DNA from: an uncultured Desulfobulbia bacterium | GTDB lineage: Bacteria; Desulfobacterota; Desulfobulbia; Desulfobulbales; CG2-30-60-27 | Assembly: GCA_964443295.1 (NCBI GenBank) | Contig: CAYUCH010000001.1 | Span: forward strand, 57,456-121,455 | Direction of reading: 5' to 3' | DNA length: 64,000 nt | Shown here: piece after piece, positions 10,031 through 53,887 of the stretch | How the letters are laid out: the number at the start of each line of letters is the position of its first letter | How positions within the stretch are numbered: position 1 is the stretch's first letter | Program-made: the position numbers and the translations under genes | Notes under the pieces: generated by a model | The model's input: the letters and a program-made list of their open reading frames with translations, nothing else | The model's database searches: none | Told to the model about the DNA's origin: nothing

Positions 10031-10534
10031 CCCCCTCTCTCTAGTATAATTTTTTATACCACCACAACATACTGATATCACACCATATTTTTCACTCGCC
10101 ATCCCTCCCGCCTCAAAAAATTCAAAAAATTGTACTCTACTTTTTCGTGCACACGACCAGCAGCCCCCATAACATACTGAATTTACAGTGTAAAAAAATA
10201 AAGCCAAAGAAAATCAGCGCTTGGCACGCATCTTGCTTTTCTAATGTGCAATTAAGAAGCTAAGAAGCAATTCTTACTCCTTTCTCCTCATGTGATGGTC
10301 GATCTCTATCTCCCCATGGATCGGCCATTACTGTTTCTACCTCCCCAATTTTCTCAATTACCCAACGTAATAATTTTTGAATTCTTCCTGATGAGAAAGT
10401 ATAAAAAATGCTATTTTCAATACGCAGCACGTAATTATCTAAAAGGCATCCTCCTCAACCTCAAGACCACGAAACAGGCAGATGCCCGAACATAACCTCT
10501 TGGATATTTTGCAGGCACTTCAAAACTTTTAACT

Positions 10535-43091: not shown

Positions 43092-44555
43092 CTATTCCGG
43101 TTCATCATGGCAAAGTGCACAATCCTGGGTGATGGTATCACCGTTTTCATTCTCATGTTCTTCGTCATGACATCGCCAACAACCATACCCATCATCGGCA
43201 TATTGATGCCCCAGATGGCTTTTATAGGTACCCCAATGGATATCCATTCTCGGCCAAACATTGTTCAAATACGTTTCAAGGAGATATTCCCCGGTATTGC
43301 GGATCTCAGCCTCAAATTTCTGAGCTACTTCCGGGTCTCTCTCTTTCTGCATGGCCAATAACTTACCAATCATCTGGGCTTGGGCCTCGTCTCTATCGGT
43401 GTACCCAAACGTGAGAACAGCGAGACTGTCTTCACGGATACCTGGAATTTCACCATTGATCCGCTTACTCAAGAGACCAAAATCAACTCGCTCTTCCGGC
43501 ATATCATAGACATGGGTGGGTCGGTTATGACAATCGATGCAGTCCATAATCCTCCAACCGCCACCATGACCATCGTCCTCAGCAGGTTCATGTACTTCGA
43601 TGTCAGCCTTGACAAATTCATCTTTAGAACCGTCCGGCCTTTTCACCCTGACCTTGCCAATCTCGGTTCGCTTCTGATCTGCAGCAAGATAGCTCACCTC
43701 AACATCCTGGCTGACATGCCAGTGAATTCCTTCAAAAGCATCGGTAACAGGATTCCGCCCACCAATATGGAGTGCAATATCAGCTACTTCGGGATTCACT
43801 TGGTCTTCATCGCTGAAACTTGTAAAACTCTTGACTTTTTTGCCATGGAATTTTTCAGGCCAATGGCACTCTTCGCAGATGTCCGGGGCGGGGCGCAGAT
43901 GTTCTACCGGAGCGGCAATGGGTCGGGAATATGTATCTGCCACCACTGCAACAACCTGACGCAATCCTGAAATCTTTGCTTTTACAAACCAACCTGCCCC
44001 GGAACCAATATGACACTCAACGCAAACAACTTTCGCATGGGGAGAGCGCTGATACACCTCATATTCAGGCTCCATAACGGTATGACAAACCTTGCCACAG
44101 AAATAGGGGGAATCGCTGAAATGATACCCTTCATAAGCGACAAAGGCCAAAATACAAAAATTTATCACTGTTAATACGATAAATCCAACGACCCAGCGAC
44201 GATGCTTATGGTCACTTAAATTTATTTTAAGATGCTCCCTGGATATACCATATTTATACCATTTCCTTCGTCGCAGATAAGCTGCAAAAGGAATTAGCAG
44301 CAAACCGGTTATCATCCCACCAGGCAAAATAAGATATGTGAAAAATCCAGCATATGGATTGTCGAAATACCCAAACAAATCGACAAGCGTCCCTATTACC
44401 AATAAGGTGGTGCTGACTGTAGTAATGGTGACACCCATCAGGCCCAGAGGCGAGCGCCACATGCCACGAATTATATTACTCCATGGACTCCGAGACAGTT
44501 GTTCAGAGTCCTCCCCTTTATTTTCTTCTTTTTGATTTGTCTCATTTTCAGACAT
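43092..44555 (-). CDS. inner-membrane multiheme c-type cytochrome (3 TM helices plus a NapC/NirT-like heme domain)
   Basis: Five CxxCH motifs (CVECH, CEECH, CIDCH, CWRCH, CALCH) plus one CxxxCH (CGKVCH). Three N-terminal hydrophobic helices. The architecture is reminiscent of ImcH-type quinol-oxidising cytochromes (from memory, not aligned). Confidence 0.75.
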   Translation of the reverse strand: MSENETNQKEENKGEDSEQLSRSPWSNIIRGMWRSPLGLMGVTITTVSTTLLVIGTLVDLFGYFDNPYAGFFTYLILPGGMITGLLLIPFAAYLRRRKWYKYGISREHLKINLSDHKHRRWVVGFIVLTVINFCILAFVAYEGYHFSDSPYFCGKVCHTVMEPEYEVYQRSPHAKVVCVECHIGSGAGWFVKAKISGLRQVVAVVADTYSRPIAAPVEHLRPAPDICEECHWPEKFHGKKVKSFTSFSDEDQVNPEVADIALHIGGRNPVTDAFEGIHWHVSQDVEVSYLAADQKRTEIGKVRVKRPDGSKDEFVKADIEVHEPAEDDGHGGGWRIMDCIDCHNRPTHVYDMPEERVDFGLLSKRINGEIPGIREDSLAVLTFGYTDRDEAQAQMIGKLLAMQKERDPEVAQKFEAEIRNTGEYLLETYLNNVWPRMDIHWGTYKSHLGHQYADDGYGCWRCHDEEHENENGDTITQDCALCHDEPE

Positions 44556-44678
44556 AAACAGCCTCCTCCCACATTTTTTTTTAACTTAGAGCTTCAAGAA
44601 TTTTTCAGCACGTATAAATTACTCACAGATTCAGAGAGCACATTTCGCCCTGGACTCGTGACAATTTCAGTATAAGGC

Positions 44679-44695
44679 TTGCAATATAAATGCCA
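44679..44695 (-). promoter_or_regulatory. sigma-54 (-24/-12) promoter upstream of the multiheme cytochrome gene
   Basis: The minus strand reads TGGCAT-ttata-TTGCAA. GG/GC spacing is canonical. It lies about 125 nt upstream of the ATG at 44555. Confidence 0.7.
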
Positions 44696-44820
44696 GACAG
44701 GACTTTTTTTTCATACTTCTTCTCAACCACCCCAAGTTGAGACACAAATCGCCTGTCTTACGACCTTTTTTCACACCCCTTACAGCCGCCACCTCCTTTT
44801 CATTGGTTCCGTGAACACCC

Positions 44821-44870
44821 CATTGTTGCAACAATTATGTTGCAACACACCTGTCGCATGCAACACATGA
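44821..44870. promoter_or_regulatory. TGCAACA repeat cluster (candidate enhancer/UAS)
   Basis: TGCAACA occurs at 44827, 44841 and 44859. The first two lie inside TGTTGCAACA palindromes. The cluster is 130-180 nt upstream of the sigma-54 promoter at 44679..44695. Confidence 0.5.
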
Positions 44871-44876
44871 AACACT

Positions 44877-46673
44877 TTAGCTCCCTGCTACAACAGGTAG
44901 GTCCAGCAACACTGTAGTATGATTTCCAGCCACACTATCTACGGAAAGTTTGCCGCCATTTTCTTCCACCAGAAATTTACTGATTGTCAAACCGAGTCCT
45001 GTGCCACCATCCTTGCCTTTGGTTGAGAAAAATGGCTCCATAAGACTGGAAAGCACTTCAGGCTCCACACCAACTCCCCAGTCGGTAACCGAACTCCGCA
45101 ACCAATTACGACCTTCGGAATAAACAACTTCCCCGTGTACTTCTAATTTCTTTTGCTCGTCTCTGGCCGGGAATCGCTCGTTAAGGGCATGGCGAGCATT
45201 CATAAATACATTTAAAAACACCAAATGCATATGCTCTTTATTGACATGCACTGCCGGCAACTCAATTGGGAAAGCCACGTCCAAAATTATTCCATCATTT
45301 TTTAAGAGTTGGTCCACAAGGGAAAGTGCTTCTCCCACCACTGTAGCCATAGGAACAGAATCCTTCGCTTTCCCTTGCTCCCGTGCTAAGTATTGAACTT
45401 GGTGCAACACTGTTGCCGCACGCTCACCATCACGGACCATATTGCTGAGCAATCCCACCTTGGCACTATCTTTTTCTTGTTGACCAAATTCATCCAGCAA
45501 AACTTGGCCATAGTTAATTATGCCGTTAATGAGGTTAGAAACTTCATGAACTACGCCAGAACAAAGCTCGCCAATTGCCGCCAAGCCGCACACTCTAATC
45601 GTCAGATCGGAAAGGCCGGCGTTTTGATCATCACCTTTCTGTGCTACAACAAGACAGAGCGAAGGAGCTCCACATTCAGGAAAAGAAATTTTAAACCGAA
45701 TACGTTTACCAAATCCGTCTGGCAGAACGTGAAAGGACGAGGACTCATCCGCTTGCAAAGCCTTAACAAGCTGAGACGCCTGATTTGATCCTATATCATT
45801 GAAAAACAAAGAAACAACTGAAAAACCATGGATGACATCGAGGTCACGGCCTAAAAAACGTGCCGCTGCTTCATTAGCCTTAAGCACCTCTCCCTGGGCA
45901 TCCACCAGGAACAGGGCATCATCAGTGCTACTGAAGAGCAATTCTGCCTGAGCTTGATACGTTACAGCTTTTTCAGAACTATCCAGCCATTGCTCTTGCA
46001 ATTGGCTGTGTGTTGACGCCAACAATGAAAGCTCATCAAAAGCTTGACTGTCGTACTGCAAAGGTGCCTTGCCTGAATCATCTTTTTGTATTTGGCGGGC
46101 AATACCAATGATAGGCACGGCGAGCTTTCTATACCATAGGACCAGGAGAAAACTAAAAATACAAAGAACAATGGCAAGTCCACCGATCACAACATTTTGA
46201 AAACGAACCAACGTCGCTTTGGCCTGGCCGACGATAATCCGGTCAAACCGCATAAGACGATCACCCAGAAGTCGCATTTTCACGTTGAGTTCATTGGCTA
46301 GACTTTGCTTGTCTGTCTCTGCTTCAATTTTTCGCAAAAGCAGTACAATCCCGGAGAGATCGACTTGATTGATAAAGGTTAATTTATATTCACCTGGAAT
46401 CAGGCTATTCTCTAATAATCCGGAAAGGGCGGTATTTAATGATTCAATTTCTTCTACAATGGGACCCAATTGTTGATAGCGACCAGCCAGTAGCGACTCG
46501 GTTACATGGTCTCGAATGGTGGCAAACTGAAAAATGAGTTTTTCACTTTGGTCAATGATTGAGTCATACCTGCCGGCCAGAGAGTATTGACGCACTCCCA
46601 TCATTAATACGACGCACAAGATAACGGCCGCTGTCAAGGTCGTGCCATACAGGGTTTTTCTCAGTGAAAACAT
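44877..46673 (-). CDS. membrane sensor histidine kinase
   Basis: Has an N-terminal TM, an extracytoplasmic region, a second TM and a PAS-like segment. H-box is HEVSNLINGIINY. The HATPase domain carries GTGLGLTISKFLV. Its ATG directly abuts the ftsH stop (TAAATG). Confidence 0.85.
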   Translation of the reverse strand: MFSLRKTLYGTTLTAAVILCVVLMMGVRQYSLAGRYDSIIDQSEKLIFQFATIRDHVTESLLAGRYQQLGPIVEEIESLNTALSGLLENSLIPGEYKLTFINQVDLSGIVLLLRKIEAETDKQSLANELNVKMRLLGDRLMRFDRIIVGQAKATLVRFQNVVIGGLAIVLCIFSFLLVLWYRKLAVPIIGIARQIQKDDSGKAPLQYDSQAFDELSLLASTHSQLQEQWLDSSEKAVTYQAQAELLFSSTDDALFLVDAQGEVLKANEAAARFLGRDLDVIHGFSVVSLFFNDIGSNQASQLVKALQADESSSFHVLPDGFGKRIRFKISFPECGAPSLCLVVAQKGDDQNAGLSDLTIRVCGLAAIGELCSGVVHEVSNLINGIINYGQVLLDEFGQQEKDSAKVGLLSNMVRDGERAATVLHQVQYLAREQGKAKDSVPMATVVGEALSLVDQLLKNDGIILDVAFPIELPAVHVNKEHMHLVFLNVFMNARHALNERFPARDEQKKLEVHGEVVYSEGRNWLRSSVTDWGVGVEPEVLSSLMEPFFSTKGKDGGTGLGLTISKFLVEENGGKLSVDSVAGNHTTVLLDLPVVAGS

Positions 46674-48560
46674 TTAGGCAGCACTCGGCATATGGGAACA
46701 ATGAGCTGCAGCCGGGCATGTGCTGCAATCGTGATGTTCGTCTGTCACATCATGTTCCTTGTCTTTTTCTTTTTTAGCCTGTTTTTTCTGGGTGCAATCA
46801 AAAATAATCTGCAACTCCTCACTGTCTAACGTCTCGGTCTGTAAGAGAATCTCAGCAAGGTTACTCAAAAAATCCTTTTCATTCTCCACAATGGCAACTG
46901 CATCTCTATAGCAACTTTCCACAAGGTCTCTTACTTCTTTATCAATACGCCGAGCGGTTTCTTCACTGTGAGCCATAAGCGCTGTCTGATCACCTAAAAA
47001 ACCACTGGAATCCTTAGCATAGGACAAAGGCCCCATAGCCTCACTCATCCCCCACTTACAAACCATTTTTGTGGCAATATCCGTAGCGCGCATAAGATCA
47101 TCCTGGGCTCCGGTGGTCTGCTGATGCAAAATCACCTCTTCTGCGGCCCTGCCACCCATAAAAATAATGATCTTATTCCGCAGATACTCTTTGGAATAGG
47201 CATGCCTGTCTTTGAGAGGCAATTGCTGCGTATGCCCCATGGCCTGTCCCCGGGGAATAATAGTAATTTTATGCAGAGGATCTGATTCGGGCAGATAGCG
47301 TGCCATAATGGCGTGACCAGCCTCATGGTATGCCATGGTCCGCCGGTCCTTCTCGGTAATCACCAATCCCTTCCGTTCAACACCCATCAATATTCGATCT
47401 TTGGCTGCTTCAAAATCCGGCAGCTCAATAACATCTTTCCCTTGGCGTGCGGCCATAAGCGCAGCTTCGTTTACAAGGTTGGCAAGTTCCGCTCCGGTAA
47501 AGCCCGGTGTGCTTTGAGCGACACTATGCAGGTCTATATTTTCTGCCAAGCTGACCTTTTCGGAGTAGACCTCAAGAATTTTAAATCGCCCCTTCACATC
47601 AGGAGCCAAAATATTTATTTGCCGATCAAAACGGCCGGAACGGAGTAAAGCCGGATCCAGAATATCAGGCCTATTTGTTGCGGCAAGTACAACGATGGTA
47701 TCTTTCGAACTAAATCCATCCATTTCTACCAAGAGAGCATTCAGTGTTTGACCGCGTTCATCCTGGCCACCGCTCATTCCTGAACCTCGATGCGCCCCTA
47801 CGGCATCAATTTCATCAATAAAAATAATACTGGCTGGATTCTTTTTAGCCTCCTTAAAAAGATCACGAACCCTGGAAGCGCCAACCCCCACAAACATTTC
47901 AACAAAATCAGAGCCACTGAAGCTATAAAAAGGCACGCCAGCCTCACCGGCAATAGCCCGGGCGAGAAGTGTCTTTCCTGTCCCCGGGGGGCCCTGCAGC
48001 AAAACCCCTTTGGGAATAGAAGCGCCAATGCGGCTGAAATGCTCTGGATTTTTAAGAAATTCGATGATCTCCAAAAGCTCTTCTTTTGCCTCGGGTATCC
48101 CCGCCACATCTTTAAAGGTTACCTGTTTTTCGCTGGCACTATATTTAATCACCTTATCTTTGGTGAATTCACTTTCATCCTCTCCACCTTGCTGCTTGCG
48201 GAATAAATAAATCCAAATTCCAAGCACAAGTAACATCGGAATGATAATCGAAATGGCATTCCACAGAATAGAAGACCGATCAGGACTGGCGGAAAAGGTG
48301 ACATCTTTCTCTATTAACTTTGGCAGCAAACTTCCTACTTCAGGTGAAAATGTGGCAAACTCCCGGTCAAACTCATCGGTAAACCGGATGTCTCCCCCCT
48401 GCAATTCAACCTCGGCAATCTTTCCTTGCTCCAATTTAGTAAGGAACTCAGTATATGGCAGGCTTTCCAATTTGTTTTCCAGGTTCCAGAAAACAACTGC
48501 TGATATTCCAATACTGGCTAAAATGAGGAGAATAAAGAGATTGCGAATGAGAATAACCAT
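46674..48560 (-). CDS. ftsH: ATP-dependent zinc metalloprotease FtsH (with a Cys/His-rich C-terminal tail)
   Basis: Carries Walker A (GPPGTGKT), the SRH, and the zinc motif HEAGHA. The C-terminal tail reads [26 protein letters not shown]. Confidence 0.9.
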
Positions 48561-48648
48561 GAGCGTTCCTTAAAAGGCCGGGATCCCAAGTGAACAATTA
48601 CGTTCCCGACTGTGGGTTGTATCGCGTCAAAAGAGTACGACACTTTTG

Positions 48649-48665
48649 TTGCAATGAGAATGCCA
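48649..48665 (-). promoter_or_regulatory. sigma-54 (-24/-12) promoter upstream of ftsH and the kinase
   Basis: The minus strand reads TGGCAT-tctca-TTGCAA, about 90 nt upstream of the ftsH ATG. Confidence 0.65.
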
Positions 48666-48836: not shown

Positions 48837-49082
48837 TTAACCACCGAGTACTGCTTGAACCCAGGCTGATACGAAATTAAGCGGATTTCCTGCGCTCATA
48901 AGGCCGCCCAGTAAGAAAAGCAGCCCCATGGTACCAACCACACCGCCAACAGCGAGGATCGCGATAAGACCAACCTTACTGACCTCAAGATCCACTTCGG
49001 TGTTTTCGCCAGCATGGCTTAGTACACCGGTGTTGTTGTGTTCCCTAGTTTTTGCGATAGCAACTGATGATGTATCTTTCAT
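48837..49082 (-). CDS. small membrane protein, paralog 4 of the tandem array (81 aa, most divergent)
   Basis: RBS AAGGAG. The C-terminal block GLLFLLGGLMSAGNPLNFVSAWVQAVLGG aligns with the three upstream paralogs. Confidence 0.7.
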   Translation of the reverse strand: MKDTSSVAIAKTREHNNTGVLSHAGENTEVDLEVSKVGLIAILAVGGVVGTMGLLFLLGGLMSAGNPLNFVSAWVQAVLGG

Positions 49083-49108
49083 TATATTTCTCCTTAAATA
49101 ATAGAATA

Positions 49109-49333
49109 TTAAATACCCAGAACGGCGCTAAACCAATCTTTAACAAATGCCAGTGGACCACCACTACTTATCAATCCACCGACCAAGCAGGCCACACCCC
49201 AGACGCCTATAAGAGCGGCGACAAAACCAATAACTGTTATTCCGACCCGAGAGACTTCAACATCAACTTGTCCTGCAGACTGGGTAGCTGCTTTTATCTC
49301 GGTGTTAGCTTGTATCGGGTTGTCCTGGGCCAT
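49109..49333 (-). CDS. small membrane protein, paralog 3 of the tandem array (74 aa)
   Basis: RBS AGGAGG. The C-terminus is SRVGITVIGFVAALIGVWGVACLVGGLISSGGPLAFVKDWFSAVLGI. Confidence 0.75.
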   Translation of the reverse strand: MAQDNPIQANTEIKAATQSAGQVDVEVSRVGITVIGFVAALIGVWGVACLVGGLISSGGPLAFVKDWFSAVLGI

Positions 49334-49377
49334 TTTATCCTCCTACACTCAATCTTTCTCAATATTTCAAGCTGTCA

Positions 49378-49596
49378 TTAACCCATAACAGCGCCGAACC
49401 AACTTTTTACGAATGCAAGTGGGCCACCACTTTGAACAAGGCCACTTACCATACATGCTACTGCCCATAGTCCGATAAGACCTGAAGCAACAGCAAATCC
49501 GCCGACACCGATCTTAGAAATTTCTGTTTCCACATGGGAAGCATCTTGGGTGCGGGCATTAATTTCAGTTTTTGTTTTATTGGTTGCAGTGTTCAT
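49378..49596 (-). CDS. small membrane protein, paralog 2 of the tandem array (72 aa)
   Basis: The internal ATG at 49596 has RBS AAGGAG and gives MNTATNKTK... The C-terminus is SKIGVGGFAVASGLIGLWAVACMVSGLVQSGGPLAFVKSWFGAVMG. The longer track ORF overlaps paralog 1. Confidence 0.75.
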   Translation of the reverse strand: MNTATNKTKTEINARTQDASHVETEISKIGVGGFAVASGLIGLWAVACMVSGLVQSGGPLAFVKSWFGAVMG

Positions 49597-49643
49597 GTTG
49601 ATCTCCTTTTCAAGTGAATTATTGGGTCGCTCGAGTTCTATAA

Positions 49644-49856
49644 TTAACCGCCAATTACGGCGCTCATCCATGTACCGATGAAGGACAGAGGGCCACCACT
49701 CTGAACCAGCCCACTTACCAGACATACAATCCCCCATACTCCGATCAAACCGCCGGCGATGAACATCGCTGTAATTCCAACCTTGCTCAGCTCACCATCT
49801 AAAGTAGCGTCTGTTGATTTCGTGATTGCTTTAGTTTGAGTTGTTGCGCTTGTCAT
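49644..49856 (-). CDS. small membrane protein, paralog 1 of the tandem array (70 aa)
   Basis: RBS GGAGG. The C-terminus is SKVGITAMFIAGGLIGVWGIVCLVSGLVQSGGPLSFIGTWMSAVIGG. Confidence 0.75.
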   Translation of the reverse strand: MTSATTQTKAITKSTDATLDGELSKVGITAMFIAGGLIGVWGIVCLVSGLVQSGGPLSFIGTWMSAVIGG

Positions 49857-49906: not shown

Positions 49907-49923
49907 TTGCAATGGCAATGCCA
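49907..49923 (-). promoter_or_regulatory. sigma-54 (-24/-12) promoter upstream of the small-gene array
   Basis: The minus strand reads TGGCAT-tgcca-TTGCAA, about 50 nt upstream of the ATG at 49856. Confidence 0.7.
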
Positions 49924-50284: not shown

Positions 50285-50340
50285 ACATTTGCAACACATG
50301 CAACACAACACAGGTGTTGCAAATGTGTCGCAACAAACAT
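50285..50340. promoter_or_regulatory. TGCAACA/TGTTGCA repeat cluster (candidate enhancer/UAS)
   Basis: TGCAACA at 50290 and 50299, its complement TGTTGCA at 50316, and CGCAACA at 50329. The reverse complement aligns with the 44821..44870 cluster (GTTGC[A/G]ACA ... TGCAACAC..CTGT). Confidence 0.5.
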
Positions 50341-50345
50341 ACGCG

Positions 50346-52178
50346 CTACACTTTTACAGCGTTTAATTCGATTTTGTAGGTGTGCATTTTTCTATAAAGA
50401 GTACTGCGGTCCATTCCAAGAATTCGTGCAGCCTTTGCCTTGTTTCCACCAGCTTTATGCAAAGCAGCAAGGATTCGTTGAGGTTCATCTAATCCATCAT
50501 CCACAGTTTCTTCAATAACCTCGATCTTCTTCTTAGCTGTATCGCTGATGTGGCGCCGCTCTACTGGATAAGATCGAGAATCTTCCTTTATGGATGATTG
50601 AGCAAGTTCTCCGTGCCGTATTTCTTCAGGGAAATGATCCAAGGTTAAAGTAGAGCCTTCACACAGAATACAAGCTCTTTCCATAACGTGTTCAAGCTCT
50701 CGAACATTACCAGGCCATCCAAAATTTCTGAGAGCTTCCATGGCCTGATCTGAAATCCCACTAATTTCCCGACCTAGCTTCTCCTGGAATTGCGACAGAA
50801 AATGGGCCACAAGGATTGGAATCCCCTCATATCTTTCACGTAGAGGGGGTAATTTAATTTCCATAACCCGCAAACGGAAAAAAAGGTCCTCACGAAAATC
50901 ACCATCTAAAACTTTCTTTCTCAGGTCTGCATTGGTTGCGGCAACAACTCTCACGTCTACCTGAATGGGACGGTCACGTCCGACTGGATAAAAAGACCGC
51001 TCCTGGAGAAATCGTAACAGCCGGAGTTGCATGCGGGAAGAGATGTCACCTATCTCATCGAGAAATAATGTACCGCCGTCGGCCTGCAGGATCCTTCCCA
51101 TCCGATCTCGATCTGCTCCGGTGAATGATCCCTTTTTATGACCGAACAACTCACTCTCAAGAAGATCATCGGTAATTGCTGCACAATCAACCTTGACCAA
51201 TGGCTTATTATGCCGTGGACTTTCCGCATGCAGCGCCTCAACAGCCAACTCTTTGCCGGTCCCTGATTCACCTGTGATCAGTACAGTTGTATCGACCTTA
51301 CCAACATTTTCTATTAGAGAATAAACAGACTGCATAGCCGGGCTCGAGCCGACATATCGATGAAAACGAGATCGTTTGGCCCTGTTACTGCTTTCCTCAA
51401 GACTTGTTACATCTCGGGCAACAAAAACAACCCCCTGAAACCCACCACTTCCATCCTGGAGCGGCGCAGCATTGAGACTGAGAATTTTTTTACCACCATC
51501 TGGCCGAGAACACTCAACACGATGCTCACGAACCTCCTCACGGGTGCGCAACACTTTCTGGGCATCTTTCAGGCAACAATTTCGCATCCCCTCAGGAAGC
51601 ATCTCAAGTGAAATGGGGGTATTACTTTTCAATCCCATGCCGCCCATCCACTCTTTGGCCATCTCATTGAAATGCACAACCTGCATTTCATTATCCACAG
51701 TGATTATGGCATCACGCACTGATCGAAAAATCGTATCAAGATATTGCCGATAATGCTCATTTTCCTTCTCAAGCCTCTTTTTCTCTTTTTGCAAATGCCA
51801 TTGCTTGAGGGCCTGTCTGGTAAATTTGAGCAGCGTTTCCTTATTGACGGGCTTGGGAATATAATCAAAGGCACCTAAGCGAACAGCCTCGGCAGCTGTT
51901 TGCAAATTTGGAAAACCAGTGATCATCACCACTGGACATTGCACATTGGCCGCGCGAATTTCACCCAACAGATCGGTACCGGAAGTGCCTTCGAGAACAA
52001 TATCGCTGATGATGAGATCAAACTCATGTTCATGAATAGCTGCCAAAGCCTCCTGATAGGTAGCAGCCGTGCGAACCGGCCCGTAGCCTTCCCTTGTAAG
52101 GAACATCTCAAAAGTAAGGCGAAGGCTCTCTTCATCATCAACAATTAATATGCTGGTTGAATCTTTTTTTGCATCCAC
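50346..52178 (-). CDS. sigma-54-dependent response regulator (REC-PAS-AAA+-HTH, NtrC family)
   Basis: The receiver carries ILIVDDE ... IISDIVLEGTSG. The AAA+ domain has Walker A GESGTGKE and a GAFTGA-type loop (KKGSFTGA). The C-terminus is a Fis-type HTH (AARILGMDRSTLYRKM). Confidence 0.9.
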   Translation of the reverse strand: MDAKKDSTSILIVDDEESLRLTFEMFLTREGYGPVRTAATYQEALAAIHEHEFDLIISDIVLEGTSGTDLLGEIRAANVQCPVVMITGFPNLQTAAEAVRLGAFDYIPKPVNKETLLKFTRQALKQWHLQKEKKRLEKENEHYRQYLDTIFRSVRDAIITVDNEMQVVHFNEMAKEWMGGMGLKSNTPISLEMLPEGMRNCCLKDAQKVLRTREEVREHRVECSRPDGGKKILSLNAAPLQDGSGGFQGVVFVARDVTSLEESSNRAKRSRFHRYVGSSPAMQSVYSLIENVGKVDTTVLITGESGTGKELAVEALHAESPRHNKPLVKVDCAAITDDLLESELFGHKKGSFTGADRDRMGRILQADGGTLFLDEIGDISSRMQLRLLRFLQERSFYPVGRDRPIQVDVRVVAATNADLRKKVLDGDFREDLFFRLRVMEIKLPPLRERYEGIPILVAHFLSQFQEKLGREISGISDQAMEALRNFGWPGNVRELEHVMERACILCEGSTLTLDHFPEEIRHGELAQSSIKEDSRSYPVERRHISDTAKKKIEVIEETVDDGLDEPQRILAALHKAGGNKAKAARILGMDRSTLYRKMHTYKIELNAVKV

Positions 52179-52227: not shown

Positions 52228-53778
52228 TCAGCCTTCCTCTGCATCAACATACTCACTAGTGTTGTCTACCTTTCTACCATCAACTGGAATATCCACAGTT
52301 ATTATGGTGTAATTATCCAGCACCGAATCCACCCGCATAACTCCACCATGATCACGAACAATTCCATGGGTAATAGACAGTCCTAGCCCGGTACCTTCCC
52401 CCGGTGGTTTGGTGGAAAAAAAAGGGTCAAAAAGTCGCTCTAAAATACCTTGAGGCATCCCCTTTCCCCAGTCCATCACCATGGTTCGCACATGCTCCTC
52501 ACCATCAACATCCACTGCGTGACAGCTTATGCGCAATTTCTTTTCCGGATCCTGCTGGGGATATCGTTCGTTCAAAGCGTATCGACTGTTGCTGAGCAAA
52601 TTTAAAATAACCTGCTGAAGTTGCTGGGCATTACCATGCAGTGGGGGCAAATCATCTTCAATTTCCACCGCAAAATTAATACCGTCTTTTTTTATCTGGT
52701 GCTGCACCAAAGTCAGACTGTCTTGAATCACTGCAGACATTTCAACATTGTGATCTTCATGCTCACTCTCCCGGGCAAAAGATAACAATTTATAAATGAT
52801 GGAGGATATCCGTTCTCCTTCTTTAATAATCCGTTGCAACAGGTCATTTTTTGTCACATCCTCACCGACATCGTCCATGAGAACCTGGGCATAATTAATT
52901 ATGCCGTTAATGGGGTTATTTATCTCATGCGCAACACCTGCGGCCAACTCACCGATTGCCGCCAATTGCCCGGTCCGCATAGCTTCCAGTTTGCGAACCT
53001 CTTCCTTGGTGAGATCCCGGGCAATTAACATGATCTGGCGAACCTCGCCATTCAGGTCCGGAACCGGTGAGACGGTGAGCAAATACTCTCCAAACAGACC
53101 AGGAAGTTTGGTCTCCATGATTTTTCGAGAACGGGTTAAAAGTAATTCTTCCAAAGGACATTTTATGTGGGGAAGTCGACCACCATGGATTATCTGACAA
53201 ACGCCATATCCAATAATTTCTTCTCTGGTCTTGCGAGCTGCATGGATAGTGGCTGGATTGACATCGCTAATTTTACCCTCGGGTGTAACAATGAGAATGG
53301 GATCCTGAACAGCGTTAAAAACCTCCCCCCACCCTGGCTGGGAAGGGCCAATATACTGTTCCCGAAATTTAAACTCCGTTACGTAAAAACCAAGATGGCG
53401 CATACCATCACGTAATTTATCCCAGGTAACGGGCTGAACGATGAAATCGCTGGCCCCGGCCTCAAATGCTCGGTCCACGGAAGAATCATCATCATCAGGG
53501 ACAACGAGAATGATCAAACTTCTTTCCGCATTGGGAAGTTTCATTATCTGGCTGCAGAGATAATAGCCGCTGGTATCCGGCAAGTTGCCATCCAGAATTA
53601 CTACATCGGGCTGATTTCGTATAAAAGATGCCAGGGCGGATTCACCATCTTCCACATCTTCTACGTTATAGCCACTAATTTCTAAAAATCGACGGATCAT
53701 AAGCCGCTGCTCACGATCGGAGTATGCAACTAAAAACTGTGACCAATTTTTTTTGGTCTTAGAAGGACTTTTTTCCAT
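52228..53778 (-). CDS. hybrid sensor kinase with an N-terminal receiver (REC-PAS-HisKA-HATPase)
   Basis: The receiver is VVILDGNLPDTSG, the H-box is HEINNPINGIINY, and the HATPase domain carries GTGLGLSITHGIV. Confidence 0.85.
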   Translation of the reverse strand: MEKSPSKTKKNWSQFLVAYSDREQRLMIRRFLEISGYNVEDVEDGESALASFIRNQPDVVILDGNLPDTSGYYLCSQIMKLPNAERSLIILVVPDDDDSSVDRAFEAGASDFIVQPVTWDKLRDGMRHLGFYVTEFKFREQYIGPSQPGWGEVFNAVQDPILIVTPEGKISDVNPATIHAARKTREEIIGYGVCQIIHGGRLPHIKCPLEELLLTRSRKIMETKLPGLFGEYLLTVSPVPDLNGEVRQIMLIARDLTKEEVRKLEAMRTGQLAAIGELAAGVAHEINNPINGIINYAQVLMDDVGEDVTKNDLLQRIIKEGERISSIIYKLLSFARESEHEDHNVEMSAVIQDSLTLVQHQIKKDGINFAVEIEDDLPPLHGNAQQLQQVILNLLSNSRYALNERYPQQDPEKKLRISCHAVDVDGEEHVRTMVMDWGKGMPQGILERLFDPFFSTKPPGEGTGLGLSITHGIVRDHGGVMRVDSVLDNYTIITVDIPVDGRKVDNTSEYVDAEEG

Positions 53779-53887
53779 TTATAATTCCTCGCTCTAGGAA
53801 AAAAAGGACCAAACGTATCAGATTATGTGCCTTTTATTTTTTAATTTCTTGCGGAGTTTTTACTATTTCACGATATATGGCCGAACC

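Follow-up and report, generated by a model that had tools for sequence, protein, structure and literature searches.

Sites bound by NtrC follow the consensus TGCACCA-N3-TGGTGCA. At glnAp2 of enteric bacteria, a hexamer nucleated by NtrC dimers on two enhancer sites loops to the sigma-54 RNAP (PMC5159524). At norVW, multiple closely packed inverted-repeat sites are served by one bEBP, NorR, and are needed for the active oligomer (PMC2831303). Comparative genomics has also been used to infer EBP motifs in Desulfovibrio vulgaris (Kazakov et al. 2015, PMC4641369), in one case with a sigma-54-dependent promoter downstream of the EBP gene (DVU0569).

Here we analyzed a stretch of 64,000 nucleotides from an uncultured Desulfobulbia bacterium (the window), in which TGCAACA repeats form a cluster (cluster 1, 44824-44865) between a histidine kinase gene and a cytochrome gene. 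This cluster is probably, at about three chances in four, a UAS/enhancer that serves the predicted sigma-54 promoter of the NapC/NirT-type cytochrome gene (44695..44680). The 610-aa activator encoded in the same region is most likely the reader of the repeats, as predicted from its gene neighborhood and from the comparison of activator clades described below.

Results

Genes of the locus

The relevant genes all lie on the minus strand and follow one another in the direction of transcription as MoaA, hybrid kinase, bEBP, small genes, FtsH, PAS kinase and cytochrome (Table 1). Only one bEBP, recognized by its GSFTGA motif, is encoded in the 64-kb window; its gene lies 5.5 kb from cluster 1 and has the same motif beside it. 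The protein scores 431.6 bits against the NCBIfam NtrC model, under the cutoff of 558.6, and none of the NCBIfam equivalogs matched. When it was used to search metagenomes by alignment, only generic NtrC-family paralogues with at most 52% identity were found among the matches listed. We also considered a NifA-type site, TGT-N10-ACA, which can be matched at 44852-44867. It was rejected because the pattern carries little information and because the activator is without a GAF domain and falls under the NifA cutoff.

The hybrid kinase encoded next to the activator is its probable cognate sensor. In front of the hybrid kinase gene (53779-53887), the window has no sigma-54 promoter that would point to autoregulation. 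In one of the other loci (L073, 100-490), a sigma-54 promoter with upstream TGCAACA/TGTTGCA motifs precedes the hybrid kinase gene, which suggests autoregulation of the kinase-bEBP operon.

The four small proteins share a conserved C-terminal motif (SGGPLxFVxxW..AV.G); searches of Pfam and NCBIfam placed them in no family, and no characterized relatives were found. The cytochrome belongs to a family that is widespread in Desulfobulbales and is without characterized relatives; a comparison with solved structures gave no match.

Two further perfect matches to the sigma-54 promoter consensus were seen in the window. One of them, TGGCATtctcaTTGCA, lies upstream of FtsH (48636-48665, minus strand) and is not conserved in L166; a dyad-like site, TGCAACAaaagTGTCGTA, overlaps its -12/start region at 48636-48653. 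The other, TGGCACgcatcTTGCT, is located at 10222-10237 on the plus strand, with an IHF-consensus match at 10065-10077. As there is no TGCAACA cluster near 10065-10237, a different activator presumably acts there.

Table 1. Positions of the features discussed, in window numbering unless a locus is named
Feature	Position	Strand	Remarks
MoaA	53888-54976	-	
Hybrid histidine kinase, REC-PAS-HisKA-HATPase_c	52228..53778	-	adjacency to bEBP conserved
610-aa bEBP, REC-PAS-AAA+(GSFTGA)-HTH_8, predicted motif reader	50346..52178	-	Sigma54_activat domain
Cluster 2, predicted UAS of small-protein operon	50286..50335	.	half-sites and conservation
Sigma-54 promoter of small-protein operon, TGGCATtgccaTTGCA	49908..49923	-	perfect match; conserved in L166
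Four tandem paralogous genes for 70-81-aa single-TM proteins	48837..49856	-	terminator follows
FtsH	46674..48560	-	
PAS histidine kinase, PAS and HATPase_c, 598 aa	44877..46673	-	stop codon 44877-44879
Cluster 1 core, predicted UAS/enhancer	44824..44865	.	six full TGYNRCA half-sites; L080 alignment
Third TGCAACA copy	44859..44865	+	abuts TGTCGCA half-site; adjacency kept in L080 (TGTCGCG/TGCCACA)
Dyad B, TGCAACA-CACC-TGTCGCA	44841..44858	.	18-bp inverted repeat; 4-bp overlap with dyad A
Dyad A, TGCAACA-ATTA-TGTTGCA	44827..44844	.	perfect 18-bp inverted repeat
Sigma-54 -24/-12 promoter of cytochrome, TGGCATttataTTGCA	44680..44695	-	perfect match; in L080 kept as TGGCATttttaTTGCA
NapC/NirT-type multihaem cytochrome (predicted target gene), 487 aa	43092..44555	-	six CXXCH
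Perfect dyads upstream of SPFH genes	L015 2145-2162; L020 6378-6446; L021 4635; L023 5937; L026 5950; L072 5948		
Dyad overlapping the bEBP stop	L002 4327-4344; L166 11812-11829; L167 8479-8496; L168 6272-6289		

Overlapping dyads in cluster 1

The sequence-only reading had described cluster 1 as three copies of TGCAACA, two of them within TGTTGCAACA palindromes. When we re-read the sequence, the three copies were found on the plus strand exactly where it had placed them (44827, 44841 and 44859), and the two palindromes were found at 44824-44833 and 44838-44847, with the reverse complement TGTTGCA starting at 44824 and 44838. The heptamers are therefore real, and it is the three-heptamer unit that has to be given up: the unit is an 18-bp dyad, TGCNACA-N4-TGTNGCA, of which two copies (dyads A and B) form a 32-bp palindromic composite, TGCNACA-N4-TGTTGCAACA-N4-TGTNGCA. 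Within cluster 1 the dyad takes the specific form TGCAACA-N4-TGTYGCA, and the half-site generalizes to TGYNRCA. In addition to the six full half-sites, there is a degenerate seventh at 44868-44874. The centers of dyads A and B are 14 bp apart, roughly 120 degrees of rotation. This overlapping arrangement is unusual, and because the dyads share 4 bp, it is sterically uncertain whether two dimers could occupy them at once. A degenerate dyad match, TGCAACACTGTTGCCGCA, was also seen at 45403-45420, inside the PAS-kinase coding sequence and ~550 nt upstream of cluster 1.

To assess the non-randomness of the cluster, we counted the heptamer and the dyad over the whole window. On both strands together, cluster 1 holds 5 TGCAACA matches in 42 nt, a density that none of 300 first-order Markov simulations approached, the highest value there being 2 per 50 nt. 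Across the 64 kb, the heptamer is mildly over-represented (20 observed versus 12.9 expected; 3 of 100 shuffles reach 20). At least three heptamer matches per 50 nt occur at only two places, cluster 1 and a second cluster (cluster 2, 50290-50321), both of which are intergenic and upstream of sigma-54 promoters, and the remaining matches are isolated. Exactly two perfect matches to TGCNACA-N4-TGTNGCA exist in the window, both in cluster 1, and none appeared in 100 shuffles.

The cytochrome promoter and the second cluster

The cytochrome promoter lies 125 nt upstream of the ATG and has the GG-N10-GC form in gene orientation. The repeats are located 132-170 nt upstream of it (44695..44680), which bears out the UAS-to-promoter distance of 130-180 nt that had been proposed. 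The spacer between the kinase and the cytochrome is 320 nt long, and the PAS-kinase stop codon precedes the first, degenerate half-site of the predicted enhancer by 7 nt in gene direction. We found no IHF consensus between the UAS and the cytochrome promoter. A plus-strand ORF of 63 aa (44679-44870) spans the region from promoter to enhancer and is almost certainly spurious.

The claim of a related second cluster at 50285..50340 is also correct. TGCAACA occurs there at 50290 and 50299, TGTTGCA at 50315 and TGTCGCA at 50326. The last two form a dyad, TGTTGCA-AATG-TGTCGCA (50315-50332), and 12-nt inverted arms are present at 50286-50297 and 50314-50325. Cluster 2 begins right after the bEBP stop codon, has a degenerate center and is ~390 bp from its promoter. 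The four small-protein genes downstream are the predicted conserved primary targets of the activator.

Conservation beside the activator gene

For the comparison with other genomes, we collected 79 genome loci via the cytochrome and six via bEBP orthologues; metagenome contigs L083-L085 are identical matches to the window itself. Besides the window, the bEBP-orthologue set (group 1) comprises ten loci (L002, L073, L077, L078 and L166-L171) whose activators are 59-83% identical to that of the window. The order kinase, bEBP, small genes and FtsH is kept across the loci collected, with 2 to 7 small-gene copies after the bEBP in every orthologous locus and FtsH usually next.

In all ten of these other loci, a cluster of TGYNRCA half-sites directly follows the bEBP stop and precedes the -24/-12-type promoter from which the small genes would be transcribed. 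A similar cluster upstream of a sigma-54 promoter is present in L076, on a contig without a bEBP gene. A degenerate form of the dyad (at least 11 of 12 positions) reaches 6.8 per kb in the 4 kb of bEBP-adjacent regions versus 0.05 per kb over 1.24 Mb, and 27 of its 65 matches fall inside these regions, a figure to be read with the pattern having been derived partly from the same regions where the enrichment was measured.

Within a dyad the half-sites are 11 bp apart, and across loci the distances between half-sites peak sharply at 11, 14, 3 and 25 bp. The 11- and 14-bp spacings of cluster 1 are repeated in cluster 2 and behind the bEBP orthologue in all ten other loci. The composite with dyads offset by 14 bp is found in cluster 1 of the window, L002, L166, L167, L168 and L080, and several loci (L077, L073 and L169) have direct repeats with an 11-bp period.

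In several genomes, the final codons and stop of the bEBP gene (..VAKV*; Table 1) share sequence with a perfect dyad, TGT(A/T)GCAaaagTGTAGCA, so that the activator gene seems to carry a candidate binding site at the end of its own coding sequence. The version in the window (around 50345-50362) is weaker. Extra complementary arms of 10-15 bp flank the enhancer in L002 (4348-4395), L167 (8500-8548), L168 (6297-6337) and L077 (5745-5835). These arms differ in sequence between loci and may have a hairpin or cruciform function on top of the predicted binding sites.

A different motif beside a divergent activator clade

Other loci (group 2: L005, L018, L028, L034, L041, L043, L056, L064, L067 and others) encode a shorter bEBP beside homologous small genes. 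This bEBP is ~42% identical and has no PAS domain, and its recognition helix reads GLRTLYRK versus DRSTLYRK in group 1. Upstream regions of group 2 contain essentially no TGYNRCA sites (at or below background). They carry a different motif, TTGnCAAAATGnCAA, at 12.9 per kb versus a background of 0.33 per kb, and their promoters have an atypical -12 element, TAGCA. Of the computational evidence, this change of motif with the activator clade speaks most strongly for the adjacent bEBP as the reader. Published reconstructions of EBP regulons argue in the same way (PMC4641369).

Distribution of the cytochrome enhancer

The nearest relative is L080, in which the cytochrome is 84% identical; L080 and L166 (bEBP 83% identical) belong to one genome. 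Beginning at the kinase stop, L080 carries the sites TGTTGCG-TTAG-TGTCGCG/TGCCACA-TAGT-CGTTGCGACA-TAAG-TGTAGTG (the slash marks abutting half-sites), and the promoter TGGCATttttaTTGCA lies ~150 nt downstream of them. Pairwise identity between the window and L080 is 37% in the spacer and 15% in the leader, compared with 65% in the UAS, 73% in the promoter and 74% around the RBS/ATG. Within the half-sites, changes fall on the central N and the TG/CA ends are retained.

In the 79 more distant loci, the cytochrome orthologues with enough upstream sequence show neither the sigma-54 promoter nor the motif. L082 (cytochrome 78% identical) also lacks both. In most genomes the cytochrome comes directly after upstream genes. 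Conservation of the repeats in relatives, which had been put forward as a check on the enhancer proposal, is of two kinds: it is found beside the bEBP orthologue in ten loci, and for the cytochrome copy it extends to L080 and to none of the other loci inspected. As the predicted cytochrome enhancer and its promoter occur in the lineage of the window and in one relative only, just two genomes bear on the conservation of cluster 1 itself. Cluster 1 is lineage specific, being absent upstream of the more distant cytochrome orthologues inspected. On this distribution, the predicted cytochrome enhancer is a lineage-specific addition to what appears to be an older regulon.

Discussion

Alternative explanations

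The dyads could instead be operators of another transcription factor that controls cytochrome and membrane-stress genes, in which case their proximity to the bEBP would be coincidental or reflect co-regulation. Perfect dyads do occur upstream of genes for SPFH and a 670-aa multihaem cytochrome (L015, L020, L021, L023, L026 and L072), and one of these, GCTACACACCTGTCGCATG, differs from cluster 1 at a single position of 19. The SPFH-upstream dyads have a sigma-70-like -10 element nearby and no recognizable sigma-54 promoter. Because perfect dyads exist without a sigma-54 promoter in other genomes, a different regulator could read the motif. The dyad-like site over the -12/start region of FtsH (48636-48653) has a repressor-like position. 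However, a cluster of the motif directly follows the bEBP gene in 11 of 11 group-1 loci, and another motif takes its place where the bEBP belongs to the other clade, with its different recognition helix. Moreover, both sites in the window lie 130-400 bp upstream of -24/-12 promoters, a placement that is enhancer-like and not operator-like, and we therefore consider control by another factor unlikely. In the six SPFH loci, the SPFH/Band_7 gene is followed by a 663-670-aa multihaem cytochrome.

Another possibility is that the inverted repeats fold into hairpins, in RNA or DNA, where the kinase and bEBP transcripts end, and serve as stabilizers, terminators or processing sites. TGCAACA-N4-TGTTGCA is able to form a 7-bp stem with a tetraloop, the complementary flanks of 10-15 bp in L002, L167 and L168 differ in sequence between loci, and the L077 region folds with z = -4.9. 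Folding is inconsistent across loci, however (z = -1.28 for cluster 1, +0.74 for L080 and -0.94 for L169). The direct 11-bp repeats of many loci (L077, L073, L169) cannot pair, and in paired half-sites the central N is often non-complementary, as when TGCAACA is combined with TGTCGCA. Nor is there a T-tract: no intrinsic terminator (GC-rich stem-loop followed by a T-tract) was found in 44400-45000, and Rfam covariance models gave no match in 44556-44876 even at E <= 1. Hairpins as the main explanation are thus very unlikely. A chance low-complexity patch or a REP-like dispersed repeat without regulatory role, to which the mild enrichment of the heptamer alone might point, is effectively excluded. 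The observed clustering was never reached in the 300 simulations, perfect dyads were absent from all 100 shuffles, and the architecture is conserved over at least 11 genomes. The heptamer is also not dispersed, as a generic REP element would be; its only two clusters in 64 kb are intergenic and upstream of sigma-54 promoters.

A possible mechanism

The candidate-enhancer reading is supported computationally by the clustering statistics, the conservation and the covariation with the activator clade. The locus has the features expected of a UAS: a -24/-12 promoter 132-170 nt downstream, inside the expected range of roughly 80-400 bp; two dyads of 18 bp, where at least two of about 17-18 bp are expected; an HTH-containing bEBP encoded nearby; and a motif that tracks its predicted regulator. 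From these we infer a scheme of activator binding, oligomerization, looping and activation, including the choice of signaling kinase. The hybrid kinase (52228-53778), and perhaps also the PAS kinase whose gene immediately precedes the enhancer, would phosphorylate the 610-aa activator (50346-52178). Activator dimers would then bind the dyads via their Fis-type HTH and nucleate a hexamer, looping ~150 bp to the sigma-54 holoenzyme, and ATP hydrolysis would open the closed complex at the cytochrome promoter (44695..44680). The same activator would use cluster 2 for the operon of four small membrane proteins beside its own gene. If it uses both clusters, the cytochrome would be co-regulated with the small-protein operon.

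Implications for the regulon

More tentatively, the clusters could mark an undescribed sigma-54 regulon that is conserved across Desulfobulbales, an order that includes sulfur-cycling bacteria. A PAS-containing response-regulator bEBP with one or two kinases would control tandem genes for novel ~70-aa membrane proteins together with a dedicated FtsH, and some lineages would have respiratory multihaem cytochromes under the same control. Its enhancer would be unusual in having overlapping dyads, with the first site in the last codons and stop of the activator gene in several genomes.

The class of element is a textbook one; what the case offers concerns annotation and the way regulons evolve. 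For an uncharacterized sigma-54 activator that is widespread in Desulfobulbales, the analysis provides a concrete predicted recognition sequence, TGCNACA-N4-TGTNGCA. It also connects a NapC/NirT-type cytochrome with a membrane anchor to a conserved module made up of two kinases, the activator, the small membrane proteins and FtsH, where one lineage seems to have added a respiratory gene to the regulon via an acquired promoter and a predicted enhancer. The motif can be used for regulon reconstruction in metagenome-assembled genomes and so for a guess at the signal that controls an electron-transfer protein.

Comparison with described systems

A literature search on the gene cluster returned nothing relevant. 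The locus resembles the cases in the Desulfovibrio EBP work (PMC4641369) in having an EBP gene beside a sigma-54 promoter and a palindromic motif derived from orthologous upstream regions. It differs from them in its order (Desulfobulbales) and in its motif, EBP and regulon (small membrane proteins, FtsH and a NapC/NirT cytochrome); in the sections of that paper drawn on here we found no motif matching TGCNACA-N4-TGTNGCA.

With NorR the locus shares several tightly packed inverted repeats and a single predicted bEBP reader. In contrast, the NorR sites have the core GT-N7-AC and are three separate sites in a divergent promoter region, and the sensor domain of NorR is a GAF, whereas the activator here has REC-PAS.

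The differences from NtrC lie in the details of the sites and in the target. The half-site has AAC here rather than ACC, the spacing is one bp longer and the period is 11 bp instead of 10 bp. The dyads overlap, with centers 14 bp apart, whereas the NtrC sites are separate and 32 bp apart. A PAS domain is additional in the activator here, whose predicted target is a cytochrome and not a nitrogen-assimilation gene. In its general plan, the locus is nevertheless like NtrC (GlnG) at glnAp2, with a response-regulator bEBP, a Fis-type HTH and dyads with TGCA...TGCA outer ends upstream of a -24/-12 promoter, where NtrC has two sites ~110-140 bp upstream (PMC5159524).
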